NCBI GenBank assembly: GCA_937983065.1
Contig: CALKAL010000049.1
Location: 4,961 to 68,960 of the forward strand
DNA length: 64,000 nt
DNA from: an uncultured Bacillaceae bacterium
GTDB taxonomy: Bacteria; Bacillota; Bacilli; Bacillales; Alkalibacillaceae
Direction of reading: 5' to 3'
The notes beneath the pieces are model-generated. The model searched no databases, was not told where the DNA came from, and saw nothing but the letters and a program-made list of their open reading frames with translations. The stretch's first letter is position 1; each line of letters begins with the position of its first letter. The position numbers and the translations under genes were made by a program. Positions 26 through 33,226 of this stretch are shown here, piece by piece.

Positions 26-2227
26 TTAATGTATCGTTCTTTGGACAGCAAAAACGTCCTTAACTTGTTTAACTCGGTCGACAATTCGTTGCAAATGATC
101 GACGTTATGAATCAGAATAGTAATGTTTACGGTAGCTATTTTGTTACGACTCGTTTTACCTGTGACGGCGGTAATATGCGTGTTCGTATCATTTATTTTT
201 TGTAAAATATCATTTAATAAACCGTTGCGATCAAAGCCAGAAATTTCTAAGTCAACACTGTAGCTTTTATGTTCTTCATAATGAACATCCCACTCAACAT
301 CAATTAATCGGTCCTCTTCACCAGCGCTTACGTTTGGACAATCAGTGCGATGGACGGAAACACCACGACCTCGTGTAATAAAGCCAACAATGTCATCGCC
401 AGGTATTGGATTACAGCATTTAGATAATCGAACTAATAAATTATCTACACCTTTAACGGTTACCCCAGGACCTGATGTTCTTCTTTTTTGGCTCGGTAAA
501 TCTTGTTGAACACCTTTCAGTGCTTCTTCTAAATTATTTTTCTTCTCCTCAATTCGAACTTTTTCTGTCAACCGGTTAGCTACTTGTTGTGCTGTTATGC
601 CTTGGTAGCCAACTGCGGCGTATAAATCATCTTCATTTTTAAAAGAAAAGCGATCTAAGGCAATTTGAATATTTTCTTCTGTCAATATATCTTTTGGGAT
701 AAGGCCTAAATTTTTAATCTCTTTTTCTACTTGTTCTTTACCCCGTTGAACATTTTCATCTCTTCGTTGTTTCTTAAAAAACTGTTTAATTTTATTTTTC
801 GCTTGCGACGTTTGTGTTATTTTTAACCAATCTTCTGAAGGTCCATAAGAATGCTTCGACGTCATAATCTCTATAATATCGCCTGTTTTTAATTTATAAT
901 CGAGGGGCTCAATTTTTCCGTTAATTTTTGCTCCAACAGTACGGTTACCGACCTCCGTATGAATCCGATAAGCGAAATCTAATGGGACTGAACCACTCGG
1001 CAACTCAATGACGTCTCCTTTTGGGGTAAACACATAAACCATATCTGAGAAGAAATCAATTTTTAACGTTTCCATAAATTCTTCAGCATCGGTCGCTTCG
1101 TTTTGCCATTCTAAAATCTCTCTAAACCAAGCGAGCTGCCGTGACATATCTTCTTGATTTTTATCATGTTTGCCTTCTTTATAAGCCCAATGCGCAGCAA
1201 TTCCGTACTCAGCAATATCATGCATTTCCTGTGTACGAATTTGCACTTCTAATGGTTCGCCTTGTGGGCCAATAACTGTCGTATGGAGTGACTGATAAAG
1301 GTTCGGTTTAGGCATCGCGATATAATCTTTGAATCGGCCAGGCATCGGCTTCCAGCACGTATGAATAATCCCTAAAACCGCATAACATTCTTTAATACTT
1401 TTAACAATCACCCGAACGGCTAATAAGTCGTAAATTTCATTAAAATCCTTCTTTTGATGAACCATTTTCCGATAAATACTATAAATATGTTTTGGACGCC
1501 CAGAAATATCTGCGACCATATCGACTTCTTTTAATTGATTTTGAATTTCGTCAATCGCCTGCTCTATAAACTGTTCCCGATTTTCCCGTTTCTGTCTCAT
1601 TAACTGGGCAATCCGATAATATTGCTGAGGTTTTAAATATCGTAAGGCTGTATCTTCTAGTTCCCATTTGATTGTTGAAATCCCTAAACGATGAGCTAAT
1701 GGGGCGAAAATTTCTAACGTTTCATTAGCTGTTCGACGCTGCTTCTCTTCAGGCATAAAAGCTAACGTACGCATATTGTGAAGGCGATCAGCTAATTTAA
1801 TTAAAATGACGCGAATATCCTTTGCCATTGCAACGAACATTTTTCGATGGTTTTCTGCCTGTTGCTTTTCTATAGATTTATATTTAATTTTTCCTAATTT
1901 AGTCACACCGTCAACGAGCATCGCAATTTCTTCACTGAAATGATGCATTAAATCGTCATAGGTCACATCTGTATCCTCTAACACATCGTGAAGAAACCCA
2001 CTGGCAATTGTTGCAGGGTCCATTTCTAATTCAATTAAAATGCTCGCTACTTGAACAGGATGCGTAATATATTCTTCACCTGATTTTCTAATTTGACCTT
2101 TATGGGCATCTTTAGCAAATTGATAGGCCCTTTTTAATAAGGCAACATGTTGGTCATTTAAGTAACGACTCGCATCTTTTAAAACTTCTTCGATTGTTTT
2201 TGACTTGTTTTTCGCCATTATGATCAC
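26..2227 (-). CDS. relA: bifunctional (p)ppGpp synthetase/hydrolase Rel (start may be 2218)
   Basis: HD hydrolase (LHDVLED), synthetase (GRFKDYIAMPKPNLYQSLHT), TGS, ZFD (KCCNPIPGD) and ACT regions. Confidence 0.98.
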   Translation of the reverse strand: MIIMAKNKSKTIEEVLKDASRYLNDQHVALLKRAYQFAKDAHKGQIRKSGEEYITHPVQVASILIELEMDPATIASGFLHDVLEDTDVTYDDLMHHFSEEIAMLVDGVTKLGKIKYKSIEKQQAENHRKMFVAMAKDIRVILIKLADRLHNMRTLAFMPEEKQRRTANETLEIFAPLAHRLGISTIKWELEDTALRYLKPQQYYRIAQLMRQKRENREQFIEQAIDEIQNQLKEVDMVADISGRPKHIYSIYRKMVHQKKDFNEIYDLLAVRVIVKSIKECYAVLGIIHTCWKPMPGRFKDYIAMPKPNLYQSLHTTVIGPQGEPLEVQIRTQEMHDIAEYGIAAHWAYKEGKHDKNQEDMSRQLAWFREILEWQNEATDAEEFMETLKIDFFSDMVYVFTPKGDVIELPSGSVPLDFAYRIHTEVGNRTVGAKINGKIEPLDYKLKTGDIIEIMTSKHSYGPSEDWLKITQTSQAKNKIKQFFKKQRRDENVQRGKEQVEKEIKNLGLIPKDILTEENIQIALDRFSFKNEDDLYAAVGYQGITAQQVANRLTEKVRIEEKKNNLEEALKGVQQDLPSQKRRTSGPGVTVKGVDNLLVRLSKCCNPIPGDDIVGFITRGRGVSVHRTDCPNVSAGEEDRLIDVEWDVHYEEHKSYSVDLEISGFDRNGLLNDILQKINDTNTHITAVTGKTSRNKIATVNITILIHNVDHLQRIVDRVKQVKDVFAVQRTIH

Positions 2228-2332
2228 CTTAAAAAGATACTTTCTGTCATGTACATATATATGTAAAACGGGTTATAACCATTCAATGACAATAGTATGT
2301 ATTAGATTAATTATAACAATTTTCGACTTTAT

Positions 2333-2373
2333 GACAATATAGCTGACTCAAAAGAAGAGTCAGCTATATTGTC
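2333..2373 (-). terminator. 17-bp perfect inverted repeat after apt, probable terminator
   Basis: GACAATATAGCTGACTC / GAGTCAGCTATATTGTC with 7-nt loop; U-tract is weak. Confidence 0.6.
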
Positions 2374-2399
2374 TAATCACCATTTATTTCATTTATTTT

Positions 2400-2912
2400 T
2401 TAAAATTCCATTAAAGTAAATACGTCATAGCCTTTTAATTTATCTTTCCCATTCAAGTAAGTTAGTTCAATAAGGAATGCACAACCTACTACAATTCCAC
2501 CAAGCTGCTCGACTAACTTAATCGTCGCTTCAATTGTCCCGCCAGTAGCTAATAAATCGTCTGTAACTAGCACTCTTTGACCAGGTTTTATCGCATCTTT
2601 ATGAATTGTAAGGATATCTTTTCCATACTCAAGACCATAGTCAACCTTTATAACTTCCCGTGGTAATTTACCTTCTTTTCGAACGGGAGCAAAGCCGATT
2701 TCTAAGGCGTAGGATACTGGACAACCGACGATAAATCCTCGCGCTTCAGGTCCGACGATAATATCGACTTCCTTCTCTTTAGCAAAGTCAACTATTTCAT
2801 CAATGGCAGATTTAAATGCTTTTCCATTGTCCATTAACGTCGTAATATCCTTAAATGTAATCCCTTCATGTGGCCAATCTTCGACTATCGTTACATATTT
2901 CTTATAATCCAT
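2400..2912 (-). CDS. apt: adenine phosphoribosyltransferase
   Basis: GPEARGF, PRPP motif DDLLATGGT; synteny. Confidence 0.98.
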
Positions 2913-5223
2913 GGACTACTTCCCCTTTCAGCTTTGGCACATCGATATGGGTCAACATCCATTCTTTTAATTGCCCATAACTTGAGTAGTATAACGTCTT
3001 TTCAACTTGTACAGCATTCATCTTTTGTTTGTACGTTTTTGATGTCGATAATGACTGCTGTTTCACATTTTTTTGAAAAACAATTTGACCATTTTTAATT
3101 GTAACAAACTTTAAATCTAAAAACACGTTTAGCATAAAATTTAATTGATCAATTGTCCATCTTTTCGCATCTGCTAGCATTTTCTTATCTCTTTCATTTA
3201 TGATCTTATGCTTTGCTAACGTTTTATAAAGGTTGATAAATTCATCTCTCGTTGGCAATTTATCAAAATAATGATCATCTTCCGTTTGAAAGCAGACATA
3301 TATGCTATTAAATCGTTTCATCGACAATAAATTAGATAAATCCTCTAGTTGATTAGGTAAATCAAATAAGACGAGATGATGATAGTCTTCTAAAATATTT
3401 GCAGTCACATCACTAAAGTTAATGACAGGTATTTGCCATTCACTAAAGTCATTTTGTCCATTAAAACCGACGATGATTGTTTGCTCTTTAACGATTAAGT
3501 CTTTTAAATGTTGCTTATTTTTAACGCCACGATAGTCAAAAATTTGTACTTCATCAGAGGATAAATCCTTTAAAATCATCTGTACTTTTTTTCTTCCATT
3601 CCACTCATTAATTTCAATTTCTCCAACTAGATGAGCGTTTGATCTTAAGGCAAGCTGTTTTGCAATGTCACCAAAATGAAAACCAACAATATCAAATTGA
3701 ACATCCTCTTTTAGTCCGACCATTTTAATGTGATTCTTTTTCGCACCGATTTGTCGGATTTCTTGAATCGTTACATCACTCAATTTAAAAATGGGTTTCG
3801 GATTTCCCATTCCAAATGGGGCAAGTAGATTAATTTGCTCTGGTAAATTCAAATCTAAATCTAATATATCTAAATCTAATTCCACTTCAATTTTCGGTAC
3901 AAAATCTTCTTCAGTTAATGTTTCTTTCGCTCGTTTGTTAAAAGCATCTCTTAATTCGGTTATGCTATGACTACTAACCGTCATCCCACAGGCTTGCTCA
4001 TGTCCGCCAAATTGTAAAAATAAATCCTTTAATGCCATCCCGTGTTTAAATAAATCAAAACTAGGAATACTTCGTCCACTTCCTTTTGCTTCTTTTGTTT
4101 CAGAATTAATTGAAAGCATGAATGTTGGTCGATTGTATTTATTAACAATTCGGGAGGCAACAATTCCTAATACGCCAGGGTGCCAATTTTCTTTAGCTAA
4201 GACGAAAAAGGAATCACCTTTATAATATGCTTCGATTTCTTTAAATGCTTCCTCAGCAATTGTAGTGACTAGATTTTGCCTTTCTTCATTTAAGCGTTCG
4301 ATTTCTTCGGCATAACTAAAAGCAATTTCTTCATCATTTTCTAATAATAAATCAACAGCAAGAGATGCATCTTGAAGTCTACCTACTGCATTTAGCCTCG
4401 GACCAAATACGAAGCCAATTGTCTCTTCTGTTACATAATCAGCCTTTGCTATTTGTTTAATGGCCGTTATCCCTTTAGATTGCGATTGATTCAATTGTTC
4501 GATTCCTTTTTTTACGAGAATACGATTTTCATCAACTAACGGAACTAAATCGGCCACTGTTCCAATCGCGACGAGTTCGAGAAGTTCTTCTTTAATATCA
4601 CCTAATAATGCTTGGGCGAGCTTGAAGGCAACTCCGACACCTGCCAGCTGTTTAAAGGGGTATGCATCAGCTAACAACGGGTGAATGATTGCATAAGCAT
4701 CTGGGATTTGTTCTTGAACCTCATGATGGTCTGTAATAATTAAATCAACTTGTCGTTCTTTTAAAAGCTGAGCTTCTTTAATACCTGAAATGCCATTATC
4801 AACGGTAATAATTAAACTAAAATCATTATCACAAGCTTGTAAAAATGTCTCTTCATTCGGACCGTAACCCTCTTCTAATCGATGGGGAATGTAAAAATAA
4901 ACATTTGCGTTTAATTGAGTTAATACATTCATTAAAAGTGCCGTTGAAGTGACACCATCCGCATCATAATCACCGTAAATTAATATTTTTTCATTATGTT
5001 TAATCGCTTCTTTAATTCTATGTACCGCCTTTTCCATGTCTGGGAATAAAAAAGGATCATGCAAATCATCTAGTGTTGGATATAAAAATTGCTTTGCTTC
5101 TTCTGTCGTATTTATCCCTCTTTTATGGAGCATACGTTTAATTGTGCTCGAAATAGGCAAATCAATTGTTTCATTCTGCTCATCATTCTGTTCAACTAAC
5201 CATTTATGTTTGCTTTTTAACAT
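2902..5223 (-). CDS. recJ: ssDNA exonuclease RecJ
   Basis: DHH family motifs [26 protein letters not shown]. Confidence 0.97.
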
Positions 5224-28511: not shown

Positions 28512-29546
28512 TTAATGAATATAGTTTTTTTTCGTTATGTTCGGTGTTTTTTTAAAATGTTCAATATAGTCTAACGCCTTGCCTGTCCCGACTACTGCCG
28601 TTGTTAAAGGATTCTCGGTCATATGAACAGGTAATGTCGTCTTTTCAAAAATAACTTTATCCAAAAATTTTAGCTTCGCCCCACCGCCAGTTAGAACGAT
28701 TCCTTTCTCTATTATATCAGAGGCAAGTTCTGGTGGCGCATTTTCTAAAATATTTATTATCAAATCTATAATAGCATTAACTGTACTTTCAATCGCTATG
28801 ACAAGTTCTTCATTTTTTAAATAAATGATTTTCGGTAATCCTGTAATTAAATCACGTCCGAATACTTCCATTCTATCATTTTCTTGCGTTTTTTTCGCTG
28901 ATGCAAGTTGAATTTTTAACTTTTCTGCTGTCGTTTCTCCAATCATAACACGATACTCTTGTCGAATGTACTGAATTATTTGTTGATCCATTTTATCCCC
29001 AGCTGCTTTAATTGATTTTGTTAAAACGGTACCACCTAAGGAAACGATAGCTGCTTCCGTCGTCCCACCTCCGATATCGACAATTAAGCTACCTGATGAA
29101 TCCCATACAGGCAAGCCAGCGCCAATTGCTGCTGCCAAAGATTCTGTCATAATATAAACTTGTTTCGCGCCTCCTTGTTTAGCCGCTTCAACAATTGCTT
29201 TCTCTTCAACCGTCGTAATGCCAGAGGGGACACAAACAATTAATGACGGTTTAAAGATATAAAACGATTGTCTATTCACTTCATTAATTAAGTAACGAAT
29301 AATCGCTGATGCTGAATCAAAGTCAGCTATCACCCCATCTTTTAGTGGCTTTATAATTTTTATAGACTCAGGAGCTTTCCCAATCATTTCCTTCGCTTTA
29401 GTCCCTACGGCTTCAACTTGATTTGTATAACGATTCATCGCAACTACTGTTGGTTCTTCGATGACAACCCCTTTACCTTTCATATAAACTAACGTATTCG
29501 CAGTACCTAAATCAATACCGATTCCTCTTCTAGATAAAAAACTCAT
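28512..29546 (-). CDS. mreB: actin-like MreB (divergent)
   Basis: GIDLGTANT, VDIGGGTTE, LTGGGA; lies between radC and mreC. Confidence 0.9.
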   Translation of the reverse strand: MSFLSRRGIGIDLGTANTLVYMKGKGVVIEEPTVVAMNRYTNQVEAVGTKAKEMIGKAPESIKIIKPLKDGVIADFDSASAIIRYLINEVNRQSFYIFKPSLIVCVPSGITTVEEKAIVEAAKQGGAKQVYIMTESLAAAIGAGLPVWDSSGSLIVDIGGGTTEAAIVSLGGTVLTKSIKAAGDKMDQQIIQYIRQEYRVMIGETTAEKLKIQLASAKKTQENDRMEVFGRDLITGLPKIIYLKNEELVIAIESTVNAIIDLIINILENAPPELASDIIEKGIVLTGGGAKLKFLDKVIFEKTTLPVHMTENPLTTAVVGTGKALDYIEHFKKTPNITKKNYIH

Positions 29547-29676
29547 CCTAATCTTCCCCTTTGATGTCGATTTTATAGTATAAGCTATGCTTGACCCATG
29601 TAAAACATGAGTATAGATAGCGCTACTAAATTAAATACATCTAAGGTTTTAGGAAGACTGGATGAGTCCCTTCAAT

Positions 29677-29817
29677 TTATAAATATCCTTTTTCTTTTAA
29701 AGAAACAAACTTGTTATCACCAATTATAATATGGTCTAATAATTCAATGCCCAATACTTTTCCCGCTTCATGTAACCGTCTCGTTACATGAATGTCTTCA
29801 TTTGATGGAGTTGGATC
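29677..29817 (-). CDS. radC: radC exon 2 (46 aa, DPTPSNED...[10 protein letters not shown])
   Basis: hand translation from the intron 3' junction gives the canonical RadC C-terminus; absent from the ORF track. Confidence 0.93.
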
Positions 29818-31671
29818 GTAGGGTAGATTGATGCGCCTTACTGTAAGCAGGTTTCATCACTCCCCCTCAGAACCGTACGTACACCTTTTCAGCGTATACG
29901 GCTCGCCAGTTGATATATAAAAATGCTCCTTAAACGATTATATTCATTTAATATTAGTCTCCATGAACCAATTCCTTTAACTTAACAAATGAATACAATT
30001 GAATATGACCGTTCTGATCTTTGATTGCTATTGATAAAAAACCTTGCCTCGCTCTTCTCAAACTTATTGCGACCCTTTTTACACGACTTCTTCTTTTGTA
30101 TGCTAATGTTTTTATAAAACTACTTTCCGCCAGATGAAATACTTTTTTTAACTCGTTCACATTATCCGCTAATTTATAATATCGATAAAACATTCTCAAT
30201 TCCCGATTATACGTCTTTAAAATCGTTAATTCAGTTTCATTAACTAAATATTTCCGTTCAGTTGATGTAAAATTATCTAAATTTCCGTATCCTTGTGCTT
30301 TAATAAATTTTTGCATCATTTCTCTCGGTATTTCTAACTTAATTTCACTTTCATTCGACGTTTTTGGATTTCTTTTGGAATGACTTCTTTTATTTACTTT
30401 TTTAAAGTGGTAGCCGAGGAAGGGTGTCCTTTTTTCCAAATGATTAATTCCACTATGTTTCTCACATAATTGTAGCTTCAAGTACTCGTTTATAAAGTGA
30501 ATTATTTTTTCGAATATTTTTTTCACATCTTGTTTTGAGCTAGAAAAACCGAGCACGAAATGATTTCCGTAACGGACATAATCGAACGGTTTATTTATTT
30601 TTCCTATCTCGCTTTTAATAAAAGCATCGAATTCGTGTAAAAAAAATATTGGGTTTAGAGTCCTGCTATGGGGAATGCGATTATAATAATAATTTGGCAT
30701 AGCATTTTTTATTTCGTTAATTTTTAAAAGTTGTTGGTCATTTATATTTTTTGAAAGGTTGTTCATTAAAATTGTCTCGTCTAAAGATTCGTTCACATGG
30801 ATGATTTCTCCTTTTAAACACCATGTGAATTTTCCCCAATTATTTTTAATATGGGATAAAGCCTTTAGATGCTTATCTTTTTGAAAGGAGCTTCCTGCTA
30901 TTTTTGGCTCGTAAAACGTATTTTGTTGGTTCTTTTTTCCAACTTGATTTAATTCTACGCGCTCATCAATCTGACTAAAATTAATAGTTTCCCTATAACC
31001 TTCTCTACTATCGTTTAAATTTTTATATACTTTCGTGCAAATATCCTTGTGATCTAAAAGACGATGACAATCCATGACCTTTCACCTTAAATAGAAGCAT
31101 TTTTATTTCGGTTAACTAGTGAATGAAATGAATCTTGAGCCTTGATAAAATTTATTTCGTAGTTAACTATTATCAACCTGTCTCCCTTCCCCTTGCTAAA
31201 CTCATTACGAGCAAACGTTGAGTACTATGGAGACTCCGTTGCCATATGTGAATCAATTTTAACAATATAAACTCACACTTAGGCAATCCCTACCTTTAAC
31301 ATCATTATAGAAGCGTGATGGTTAGGTATCCCTTTCGACGTTTTCCTAAAGCTTAGGATTGAAGGACAAACCTTACGATTGATAACGTTCAGGTGATACG
31401 TCTCAATTTTGTCCTCGTTACCTATTAGCTATCGTAGGTAACGGCGCATCCAACGCTCATCCGTCTAGGATTCAGGCAGTTTAGCTTTTACCATACATCA
31501 CTTGGTCTGAGGAACTGACTCGACTTGATAGCTTCGTCGTCTATTCCCCTTTTCACATCCCGCTTAGTCCTTATATTGAGTTTCCTCTCAAAGTTAGATG
31601 CTGACCATTCGAACAATGTAAGGAGTTCGAGATTATAAACATCACTACAATGATGCCGTTTGTAGGCGCAC
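29818..31671 (-). mobile_element. group IIA intron (Ll.LtrB/ML-like), 1854 nt, inserted in radC
   Basis: 5' GUGCG; DV at 29870-29904 with AGC triad and AC bulge; DVI branch A at -7 (29824); 3' ...CCCUAC; EBS1 ACCUGA (31389-31394) and EBS2 GGAUGA (31457-31462) match exon 1; removal restores the radC frame. Confidence 0.95.
29954..31075 (-). CDS. intron-encoded protein: degenerate RT with maturase domain X, no En domain
   Basis: located in DIV; DYVRYGNHFVLGF at the YADD position, WCLKGEI, FLHEFDAFI, PFLGYHF, domain X YNRELRMFYRYYKLADN. Confidence 0.9.
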   Translation of the reverse strand: MDCHRLLDHKDICTKVYKNLNDSREGYRETINFSQIDERVELNQVGKKNQQNTFYEPKIAGSSFQKDKHLKALSHIKNNWGKFTWCLKGEIIHVNESLDETILMNNLSKNINDQQLLKINEIKNAMPNYYYNRIPHSRTLNPIFFLHEFDAFIKSEIGKINKPFDYVRYGNHFVLGFSSSKQDVKKIFEKIIHFINEYLKLQLCEKHSGINHLEKRTPFLGYHFKKVNKRSHSKRNPKTSNESEIKLEIPREMMQKFIKAQGYGNLDNFTSTERKYLVNETELTILKTYNRELRMFYRYYKLADNVNELKKVFHLAESSFIKTLAYKRRSRVKRVAISLRRARQGFLSIAIKDQNGHIQLYSFVKLKELVHGD

Positions 31672-32214
31672 ACCTGATGGATGATTATGGGCACAGATAA
31701 TTGAAGCGGCTGAACGTTTAATCGCTTCTTTAAATACCTCACGAGGATGAACAATTGAGGAGTTTAGGCTTCCTATGAAGATAGTTTGCCTGTGGATGAC
31801 TTGATTTTTAGTGCTCAAAAAGAGACATACGAAATTTTCCTGTTTCAATCCGCGCATCTCTTCCATTAAATAATTGGCCCCATCTTGAGGGCTTCGAATA
31901 ATATATCGCTCACCAAATTGATAAGTATGGATTCGTTTTCCAATTTCTATGGCGGCTAATAACGTCACTGCTTTAGCTTCCCCAATCCCTTTAATCGAAG
32001 TAATCTCCTCGATTGTCGCATCTTTTAATAATGATAACCCTTCAAAATGCATAAGCAGCCTCGTCGCAAGTGATAATGCTGAACTTCCTTTCGTCCCACT
32101 CCCAATTAAAATCGCAATTAACTCTTGATTCGACAAAGCGTGTGGACCTACTTGGATCAGTCGTTCCCTCGGTCGATCATTTTTAGGGACGTCCTTGATG
32201 AAAATCGTCTCCAT
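31672..32214 (-). CDS. radC: radC exon 1 (181 aa); spliced product about 227 aa JAB/MPN protein
   Basis: RPRERL, IKGIGEAKA HhH, VHPREVF, ends HNHPSG at the intron junction. Confidence 0.93.
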
Positions 32215-32374
32215 ATAATTTAAACATGCTCCTTTCAATTGTGATTTAGACATGTTTAATTATAATGAATTAAAAAATGAAAAACAAAAAGGGAAAAACG
32301 TAATATGTCTCATAAATATAGCTTTCTTGTAACACCACTTGAACGTTTAAACAGAAAAAGACAACATAAACGTT

Positions 32375-33226
32375 TTATGAGTTATTTTCAAAAAATAATA
32401 AAAGACTTAATTTCACGGTATTTAAATAGATTGGCAGCTCATTTTCGGTAATTTGTTGTTCGAATTGATTCACTAAATTAGTTAGATTATTTAAATAAGC
32501 ATCATTTTCGAACCGTTCTGGGGCTTCATTTAACCACCCGCTCACTTCTTCAAGCCAGACTGAGCCCGTCATCTCAGCTGTAATTAAAGCGTCTCCTTCC
32601 TGCAACCAATTAATTTCAGCTTCACTACCTTCGATTAACACATCGTTAATTTGCCAATCTTTATATAAAAAATCATTCATATATTCATATTCGCGCGCTT
32701 CAAGCCAATTCGTCACTTCGTCTCGATTGTATGGCTGTAAATCAACCATACTTAAAACGTAATATTGCCCTTCCTCCTCATGAATAATTGTAGGAACCGT
32801 CTGTTGTAATAACGATTGCGAAAGTTCCCGTGCATTATCATTCGTAGAAAAAATACCGTATTGAATCACTTCGAAAGTTTCATTAGTTCTTTCAAATTGC
32901 TCGCCAGACTCAGCAGGTGTTTCCGTATCTGTAACTTCTTCATCCTCCTCTTCATCTTCATTAAATACAGGGGCAGAATCTGTATTATCTGCTGGATTTA
33001 AGTCGGAGAAAAAAGCTATGAACCCTAGACCGAAAATTACTCCTAATATGACGGCAAATGCGATCGGTTTAAATAATTTATTTAAAACAGGTTTATTTGA
33101 CGACATAAAATTTCCTTGAGATTTTTTTTGTTTCGGGGTTAAAAAATATTCTAATTCATGTTTTTTTGATGGAGACGGTTGTTCATCTCGGTTCACTGTA
33201 ACACGAACTTTTTTATGCTCGTCCAT
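32375..33226 (-). CDS. single-TM acidic protein with SPOR-like region (spoIIB position)
   Basis: TM helix, acidic linker, VIQYGIFSTNDNA SPOR-like motif; upstream of radC as spoIIB is in B. subtilis. Confidence 0.6.
   Translation of the reverse strand: MDEHKKVRVTVNRDEQPSPSKKHELEYFLTPKQKKSQGNFMSSNKPVLNKLFKPIAFAVILGVIFGLGFIAFFSDLNPADNTDSAPVFNEDEEEDEEVTDTETPAESGEQFERTNETFEVIQYGIFSTNDNARELSQSLLQQTVPTIIHEEEGQYYVLSMVDLQPYNRDEVTNWLEAREYEYMNDFLYKDWQINDVLIEGSEAEINWLQEGDALITAEMTGSVWLEEVSGWLNEAPERFENDAYLNNLTNLVNQFEQQITENELPIYLNTVKLSLLLFFENNS

Follow-up and report, generated by a model that had tools for sequence, protein, structure and literature searches.

A probable splicing-only group II intron with a reverse transcriptase-dead protein divides radC in an uncultured Bacillaceae bacterium

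Introduction

How does a chromosomal gene accommodate a group II intron in the middle of its active-site motif, and what kind of intron resides there? The question is raised by radC in a 64,000-nucleotide (nt) stretch of DNA from an uncultured Bacillaceae bacterium (the window; contig CALKAL010000049.1 of the metagenome-assembled genome (MAG) GCA_937983065.1), where a sequence-only reading had placed a IIA intron within the JAMM motif of RadC. Group II introns of bacteria are normally mobile retroelements that avoid conserved genes, and degenerate, maturase-only introns in housekeeping genes are a hallmark of organelles, often cited as a step towards spliceosomal introns.

We propose that radC in the window probably harbors an immobile, splicing-only intron that uses its own reverse transcriptase (RT)-dead protein as a maturase, and that a complete RadC site would come only from spliced mRNA. 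The structural part of the sequence-only reading is upheld by the division of the Pfam profile between the exons, by an Rfam match and by kinship of the intron-encoded protein (IEP) with LtrA; the RT-dead state of that protein was a point it had missed. New in the present analysis are the RT-dead maturase, a direct link to the catalogued intron O.i.I2 and evidence that the window copy may be a separate degenerate lineage.

Results

The intron separates two parts of the RadC metal site

Exon 1 of radC (31672..32214, minus strand) has 181 codons, from an ATG at 32214 to a GGT ending at 31672, and its 3' end reads CAT AAT CAT CCA TCA GGT (HNHPSG). It encodes the UPF0758_N/HhH domain (Pfam PF20582, E 1.4e-30) and, of the JAMM motif, carries the Glu (in HPRE) and the HxH. 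Exon 2 (29677..29817, minus strand) starts in phase 0 with a GAT at 29817, reads GAT CCA ACT CCA TCA AAT GAA GAC (DPTPSNED), and comprises 46 codons that end in SLKEKGYL, followed by a stop; it supplies the Ser and Asp of the motif, so that the intron falls between the HxH and these two residues. The RadC profile (PF04002) matches exon 1 at positions 1-76 (E 1.3e-27) and exon 2 at positions 77-121 (E 2.6e-16), and this division at 76/77 indicates that the junction is exact, in phase 0 and not a product of chance.

Joining of the exons at the predicted junction TCAGGT/GATCCA (...CATCCATCAGGT/GATCCAACTCC...) gives a protein of 227 residues (181 + 46), equal in size to the intact RadC ('RadC family protein') of Bacillaceae bacterium W0354, a member of the same genus whose radC is uninterrupted. 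The complete RadC domain, with the full E...HxH-x7-S-x2-D signature (HPRE, HNH, S and D all present), is found only after the exons are joined. The unspliced frame (open reading frame (ORF) 31645-32253) continues instead as HNHPSG-VRLQTASL and stops nine codons into the intron. This truncated 202-residue ORF is the gene as called on 14 contigs, which bears out the expectation that automated annotation would take radC to be truncated. The exon ends, intron limits, phase, 227-residue product and unspliced product of the sequence-only reading were all recovered at these minus-strand coordinates, and the arrangement supports the view that a full RadC active site would exist only in the spliced mRNA.

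Both exons appear to be under similar constraint. The window RadC is 91% identical to that of strain W0354 at the protein level, with a non-synonymous substitution rate (dN) of 0.063 and saturated synonymous sites; for exon 2 the corresponding rates are dN 0.071 and dS ~2, a constraint equal to that on exon 1. Co-conversion or recent transfer was considered and set aside, the spliced locus being 70-85% identical to that of W0354 throughout with no anomaly at the junction.

The MAG to which the window belongs measures 2.33 Mb, is 80% complete, and contains DNA that recurs in compost, fertilizer, manure and soil metagenomes. One intron copy and one radC are present in the assembly, and no second radC, second domain V/VI, RVT_1 protein or other maturase was found in this 80%-complete genome. 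The sequence-only reading had named a second intact radC as grounds for rejecting its proposal, and the assembled 80% yielded none. In a relative, G032, radC lies in two pieces about 55 kb apart (C1:2424477-2424902 and C1:2369693-2369857; L029 and L030), the first with two stops; the cause of this break could be a large insertion or a rearrangement instead of an intron.

Ribozyme ends and catalytic domains

The intron itself (29818..31671, minus strand) is 1854 nt long, of ML/IIA type and 34% G+C. It begins with GUGCGCC (GTGCGCC at 31671) and ends with CUACCCUAC, with CTACCCTAC at 29818 (...CCCUAC), and both ends fit the group II rule of 5' GUGYG and 3' AY. Rfam Intron_gpII (RF00029, domains V/VI) matches 29818-29906 on the minus strand over model positions 1-77 with 60.2 bits, against a gathering score of 40.

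Domain V (29870..29904, minus strand) is a 35-nt element with an AGC triad, a two-nucleotide AC bulge and a GAAAA loop. Domain V of most relatives (57 checked) has 34 nt with a GAAA loop, the window loop thus being longer by one A. At window position 29886, a low-depth contig from run X16 has one A fewer, which restores the family-typical GAAA; this variant could represent a different strain or a related organism. Domain VI (29818..29869, minus strand) places the 3' splice site after C29818 and contains a bulged adenosine, A29824, 7 nt from that site; the branch point that had been proposed from the letters alone coincides with this base, which we take as the predicted branch-point nucleotide. 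The IIA assignment, based on the LtrA match and the position of delta, is supported by the apparent kinship of the IEP with the ML class.

Covariation supports the predicted exon-recognition pairings

The last six bases of exon 1, TCAGGT (31677-31672, minus strand), form intron-binding site 1 (IBS1), and are matched at all six positions by ACCTGA (31394-31389), exon-binding site 1 (EBS1), which lies in a loop closed by an ACGU/ACGU stem. Directly preceding EBS1 in the same element (delta + EBS1, 31389..31395, minus strand) is the delta nucleotide C31395, which faces the initial G of exon 2, as in the delta-delta' contact of IIA introns; the pair is invariant and hence shows no covariation. EBS1 covaries among the same-site introns described below (57 copies) with the Ser and Gly codons at their synonymous third positions. 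The IBS1/EBS1 pairs seen are TCAGGT/ACCTGA, TCCGGT/ACCGGA, TCGGGT/ACCCGA, TCAGGA/TCCTGA, AGCGGA/TCCGCT and AGTGGC/GCCACT, and EBS1 pairs fully with its own IBS1 in 41 of the 57 copies, versus 272 of 855 pairings with foreign IBS1 types. The upper stem of domain V also contains compensatory pairs across the family.

For the second pairing, we regard GGATG (31451-31447; 31447..31451, minus strand) as the candidate EBS2, complementary to a candidate IBS2, CATCC (31683-31679, minus strand), which consists of the second His codon plus CC. Covariation in 20 copies points to this assignment: GGATG occurs only with CATCC exons, and GGGTG accompanies either CACCC or, by a G.U pair, CATCC. An alternative EBS2, GGATGA (intron positions 210-215, inside GACGGATGAGCG), was rejected because the other copies show no covariation between it and the His codon.

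The intron protein has lost its reverse transcriptase and endonuclease

Within domain IV, the sole long frame of the intron encodes a 373-residue IEP (29954..31075, minus strand), preceded by an AAGGTGA ribosome-binding site 9 nt before its ATG. The protein matches Intron_maturas2 (PF01348) with 30.8 bits against a cut-off of 20.8, and no RVT_1 match was found in Pfam at E values up to 0.1. Compared with full-length relatives, the RT0-2 block is deleted, GDI is changed to GEI and YADD to YGNH, and the insert between RT4 and RT5 is gone. The chain ends a few residues past the thumb, and the roughly 100 C-terminal residues of RT-intact copies, which correspond to the D domain and HNH endonuclease (En), are absent from the alignment. 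What remains are remnants of the palm (RT3 and RT5-7) and the thumb/X maturase domain. Judged from its sequence, the IEP is RT-dead and endonuclease-less with its maturase domain retained.

The nearest protein of solved structure is LtrA, both by sequence and by fold. The sequence match extends over RT5-7 and the thumb (E 7e-26; the next best Protein Data Bank entry reaches 0.041). For comparison, the RT-intact sibling IEP of Peribacillus cavernae matches LtrA over its full length (E 8.8e-133), and the RT-intact siblings bear an AI2M-like HNH domain. An AlphaFold (AF2) model built with 30 relatives is confident at residues 66-110 and 140-373, with pLDDT of at least 90 for residues 240-373 and low confidence for the N-terminal 65 residues; its best structural match is LtrA in the Ll.LtrB ribonucleoprotein (8h2h_D, E 2.6e-14, TMq 0.69), on which residues 240-373 superpose.

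The reading frame is open: it contains no internal stops, versus 37 and 39 in the other two frames (probability of an open frame ~1e-15). The window IEP has no close relative. For related pairs of degenerate IEPs with unsaturated synonymous sites, dN/dS ranges from 0.23 to 0.35 over the whole protein and from 0.10 to 0.18 in the X domain. From the open frame, the retained domain and this constraint on its relatives, we infer that the IEP is probably a working maturase.

Relationship to O.i.I2 and other known introns

The sequence-only reading could not say whether this insertion site had been catalogued. A comparison with published introns indicates that it is the site of O.i.I2 from Oceanobacillus iheyensis, an ML-class intron whose exons encode RadC and whose IEP lacks YADD (PMC4424553). 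Zimmerly and Semper, who credit this intron to Simon et al. 2008, called it in 2015 "the only known example" of a bacterial intron with a degenerate IEP (PMC4424553). We located it by a DNA search of the genus Oceanobacillus, which returned an intron at exactly HNHPSG/GTGCG (L170) in the HTE831 genome, a single contig of 3,630,528 bp; an exact look-up identified its 438-residue ORF as BAC14011.1 (OB2055 of strain HTE831).

The two introns share the host gene and the identical site (HNHPSG/GTGCG ... CTACCCTAC/DPTPS), and both encode ML-class IEPs that lack YADD and En but have an open frame and a conserved domain X. The ribozymes are 69% identical over the first 534 nt plus 30 nt of exon (E 4e-38), and OB2055 is 26% identical to the window IEP over 307 residues (E 1e-24). 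On these comparisons the window intron is of the O.i.I2 type: both the site and a homologous intron in it were already catalogued. However, it is not a sister copy. O.i.I2 groups with the intron of Oceanobacillus sp. 1P07AA on the ribozyme tree whereas the window copy stands alone; OB2055 has 438 residues rather than 373 and still shows RT0-2, which the window IEP has lost; and the window host is a compost MAG from another taxonomic family.

Ll.LtrB of Lactococcus lactis, with its protein LtrA (PDB 5g2x and 8h2h), is the nearest solved relative and follows the same exon-recognition logic of EBS1, EBS2 and delta. Ll.LtrB, however, is mobile and its LtrA has RT activity along with D and En domains, whereas the window protein lacks the catalytic Asp motifs and the D/En region. 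Degenerate maturases of organelles offer a further parallel: MatK of the chloroplast trnK intron and MatR of plant mitochondrial nad1 intron 4 have lost RT motifs but kept domain X, are immobile, reside in housekeeping genes and presumably act only in splicing (PMC4424553). The window IEP differs from these in being bacterial, in having a recognizable palm (RT3 and RT5-7), and in apparently serving only its own intron, the sole one in the assembly.

Tourasse and Kolsto in 2008 reported group II introns in genes of DNA metabolism in the Bacillus cereus group, among them one of the radC family, and noted the introns in radC-family genes of Bacillales as 'intriguing' (PMC2504315). Those introns comprise retroelement forms and a few ORF-less copies, and no RT-dead maturases. 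We find two B. cereus group genomes (L131 and L145) with an intron at the window's radC site.

A same-site intron family in Bacillales

How widespread are introns at this site? In an even sample of the order, a related intron is present in 19 of 401 genomes, including the window's own (G000), and these together with the copy in G009 make 20, all at the same radC site. Within the window's taxonomic family the intron is confined to G000 and G009 among 31 genomes. Scanning of 185,579 species for the exact junction pattern returned 95 stretches, of which 80 were listed, and these indicate at least ~68 Bacillales species with a radC intron at the window's site. The genera include Gracilibacillus, Halolactibacillus, Virgibacillus, Oceanobacillus, Ureibacillus, Robertmurraya, Cerasibacillus and Halalkalibacter, as well as the B. 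cereus group. Some 11 pattern matches outside Bacillales among those listed (Paenalcaligenes, Alphaproteobacteria and others) proved to be contiguous coding sequence with no introns. We did not find this Bacillales-wide radC intron family described in the literature searched.

The 58 fully captured copies used for a ribozyme tree comprise RT-intact, degenerate and ORF-less forms. Fifteen are RT-intact, ~2.53 kb long, with YADD preserved, an IEP of at least 600 residues and, in nearly all, an HNH motif. Degenerate copies number 39, with open ORFs of 226-543 residues; nearly all lack YADD, which is replaced by YGNH, YHQT, YQNS, YKQH, YGDH, YNEH and others, and their deletion boundaries differ. 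The remaining four are ORF-less (552-1067 nt). Exon 2 is intact and in frame in every fully captured copy (57 besides the window). The ORF-less introns are those of a Bacilli MAG (L110, 552 nt), Gracilibacillus marinus (L069, 706 nt), genome G176 (L058, 877 nt) and Metabacillus malikii (L098, 1067 nt), and their domain V/VI still scores above the Rfam threshold.

RT-intact copies occupy short branches (~0.02-0.07) scattered over many families, as would be expected of mobile elements. Degenerate copies lie on long branches and are often grouped by genus (Halolactibacillus with Streptohalobacillus and Amphibacillus; Cerasibacillus; Halalkalibacter; Ureibacillus; O. iheyensis with Oceanobacillus sp. 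1P07AA), as would be expected of vertically kept residents. Parsimony gives 8 changes between the RT-intact and RT-lacking states (bootstrap range 7-10), and the well-supported branches force at least two; because the tree is poorly resolved at depth, the number of independent RT losses is an estimate.

The window copy is alone on a branch of 0.25 substitutions per site, nearest to RT-intact copies and not to O.i.I2 or the G009 intron. Its first ~560 nt together with its 3' end share 82% identity with the RT-intact intron of Siminovitchia sediminis. Degeneration shared with G009, from the same taxonomic family, was considered and rejected: the deletion boundaries differ, and the C-terminal half of the window IEP is 44-48% identical to RT-intact IEPs versus 30% to that of G009. 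These comparisons provide evidence that the window copy may be a separate degenerate lineage in a large same-site family. Whether it is one of several independent RT losses within a Bacillales-wide radC intron family is, in our estimate, evenly balanced.

The order also contains other radC introns. A second insertion site (site 1) follows HPRE(V/I), 63 nt (21 codons) upstream of HNHPSG/D, and in at least 10 of 83 genomes with an intron at the window's site (site 2) both sites are occupied, leaving a 63-nt mini-exon. The genomes listed for site 1 are L026 (Oikeobacillus pervagus), L027 (G027), L058, L069, L090, L098, L109, L121, L131, L133 and L145; in G027 site 1 alone is occupied, by an intron with an intact 603-residue RT/X/En protein. 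Three introns are present in radC of L067 (G060, another family of the order; oriented ~597-4386). An ORF-less intron after HPRE(I/V) and the 63-nt mini-exon are followed by a site-2 intron that is interrupted in domain V by a nested one, GAGCCGTATACATCGAAAGG/GTGCGCC...CTACTCTAC/TGTACGTACGGTTC, forming a twintron in which both nested partners have YADD-less ORFs (379 and 331 residues). According to the 2015 review, bacterial twintrons were known only outside housekeeping genes (PMC4424553). In O. pervagus (L026:5040-5220, G039), a stop inside the HNH domain truncates an otherwise intact site-2 RT/maturase, and the remainder of that domain can be read in a different frame, which resembles an initial stage of decay.

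Transcripts and neighboring genes

Four runs were placed on positions 29400-32500 as assembled contigs only: two are compost RNA-seq, and two are labelled transcriptomic but are probably DNA. The unspliced form crosses the 3' splice site in RNA-library contigs, one of which spans 29676-31614. Run X9 has a loose end of 16 nt at 31680, whose sequence is not that of exon 2.

Directly downstream of radC lie mreB (28512..29546, minus strand) and then mreC, mreD, minC and minD, in agreement with the gene order that the sequence-only reading gave. A weak promoter-like site is present at 29604-29577, between radC and mreB; the promoter and terminator scan performed no better than on shuffled sequences. 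On the 5' side of radC, the window (32375-33226, minus strand) encodes a very acidic protein of 283 residues with one predicted membrane-like stretch, for which no Pfam match was found; in relatives, maf occupies the place of this gene.

Discussion

The features described above suggest how a complete RadC could be made from the divided gene. Transcription of radC would run through the intron, and the 373-residue IEP would be translated. Incapable of reverse transcription or DNA cutting, this protein would bind its own intron RNA through the thumb/X domain and the palm remnants. The ribozyme would then select the 5' exon by the EBS1/IBS1 and EBS2/IBS2 pairings and the 3' exon by delta/delta', branching would occur at A29824, and TCAGGT would be ligated to GATCCA. 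Only then would there be an mRNA for the 227-residue RadC with its E...HxH-x7-S-x2-D metal site. A plausible order of events is that an ancestor bearing RT and En homed into radC, and that both activities were subsequently lost in the window lineage. In such a history, the intron would have been retained by selection because radC is kept.

Several observations weigh against a splicing-competent intron of this kind. No exon-exon joint was found in the contigs of the four runs, in which minor forms are dropped by assembly and DNA carry-over is possible. The additional A in the domain V loop might weaken its tetraloop-receptor contact. The IEP has no RT0-2, a region that in LtrA contributes to the binding of domain IVa. 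The few strain-level IEP differences among metagenome contigs are mostly non-synonymous (13 against 5) and lie outside the X core. Finally, the missing fifth of the MAG may conceal a second radC or a trans-acting maturase.

Could the intron, then, simply be dead, its ribozyme or helper protein failing, so that no full RadC is made and radC is an early pseudogene? The lack of a spliced contig, the longer domain V loop, the deletion of RT0-2 and the predominance of non-synonymous strain differences in the IEP's N-terminal half would all be compatible with such a state, and radC is dispensable in laboratory strains of several bacteria. In a decaying gene, however, one would not expect both exons to be intact and in frame with dN of 0.06 against saturated synonymous sites, or exon 2, downstream of the intron, to be as constrained as exon 1 here and to be intact in all 57 other fully captured same-site introns. 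Nor would one expect a 373-codon frame to remain open where the alternatives contain 37-39 stops, or EBS1 to retain 6/6 pairing in a ribozyme 82% identical to an RT-intact copy. We consider a dead intron in a dying gene unlikely.

A functional intron might instead be regulatory, as the sequence-only reading suggested, with splicing that responds to salt, Mg2+, DNA damage or growth phase and thereby gates RadC production or influences read-through into mreBCD-minCD. The sole feature in favor of this reading is where the intron lies, within an active-site motif and ahead of mreB without an intervening terminator, and regulation by group II introns in housekeeping genes has been raised as a possibility for organelles (PMC4424553). 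Nothing observed points to splicing that varies with conditions. W0354 and 29 of 30 relatives in the taxonomic family lack the intron, which is therefore not needed for regulation of radC or mreB; a promoter-like site lies between these two genes, and the pattern across the intron family resembles repeated invasion and decay of a selfish element. A regulatory role therefore seems somewhat less probable still than a dead intron. Least probable, to the point of being hard to credit, is continued mobility by retrohoming in which a different group II intron of the cell provides RT or endonuclease in trans. Trans-complementation of ORF-less introns has been documented in other bacteria, according to the citations in PMC2504315 and PMC4424553, and MAGs, this 80%-complete one included, often miss repeated mobile elements. 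The assembly nevertheless contains neither an RVT_1 protein nor a second domain V/VI or maturase, the intron is present as a single copy, and its long private branch (0.25 substitutions per site) sets it apart from the mobile copies. We thus favor the immobile, splicing-only intron with its RT-dead maturase.

For RadC biology the consequences are small, the intron being absent from most relatives. For annotation, they are practical: radC is called as a truncated 202-residue protein, and the intron ORF is left unnamed or labelled a reverse transcriptase. The wider interest lies in the intron family. The window adds an independent example, from another taxonomic family, to O.i.I2, the sole bacterial case listed in the 2015 review (PMC4424553), and the census suggests that the published intron is the visible tip of a large family that includes every stage of decay. 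If several independent RT losses have indeed occurred in it, this family would constitute a living bacterial series of the transition from retroelement to splicing-only intron that is otherwise known from organelles, and the 373-residue IEP, lacking RT0-2, would be a near-minimal maturase. The Bacillales introns may thus offer a tractable bacterial system for studying a minimal maturase and the co-evolution of ribozyme, helper protein and host exon after mobility has been lost.

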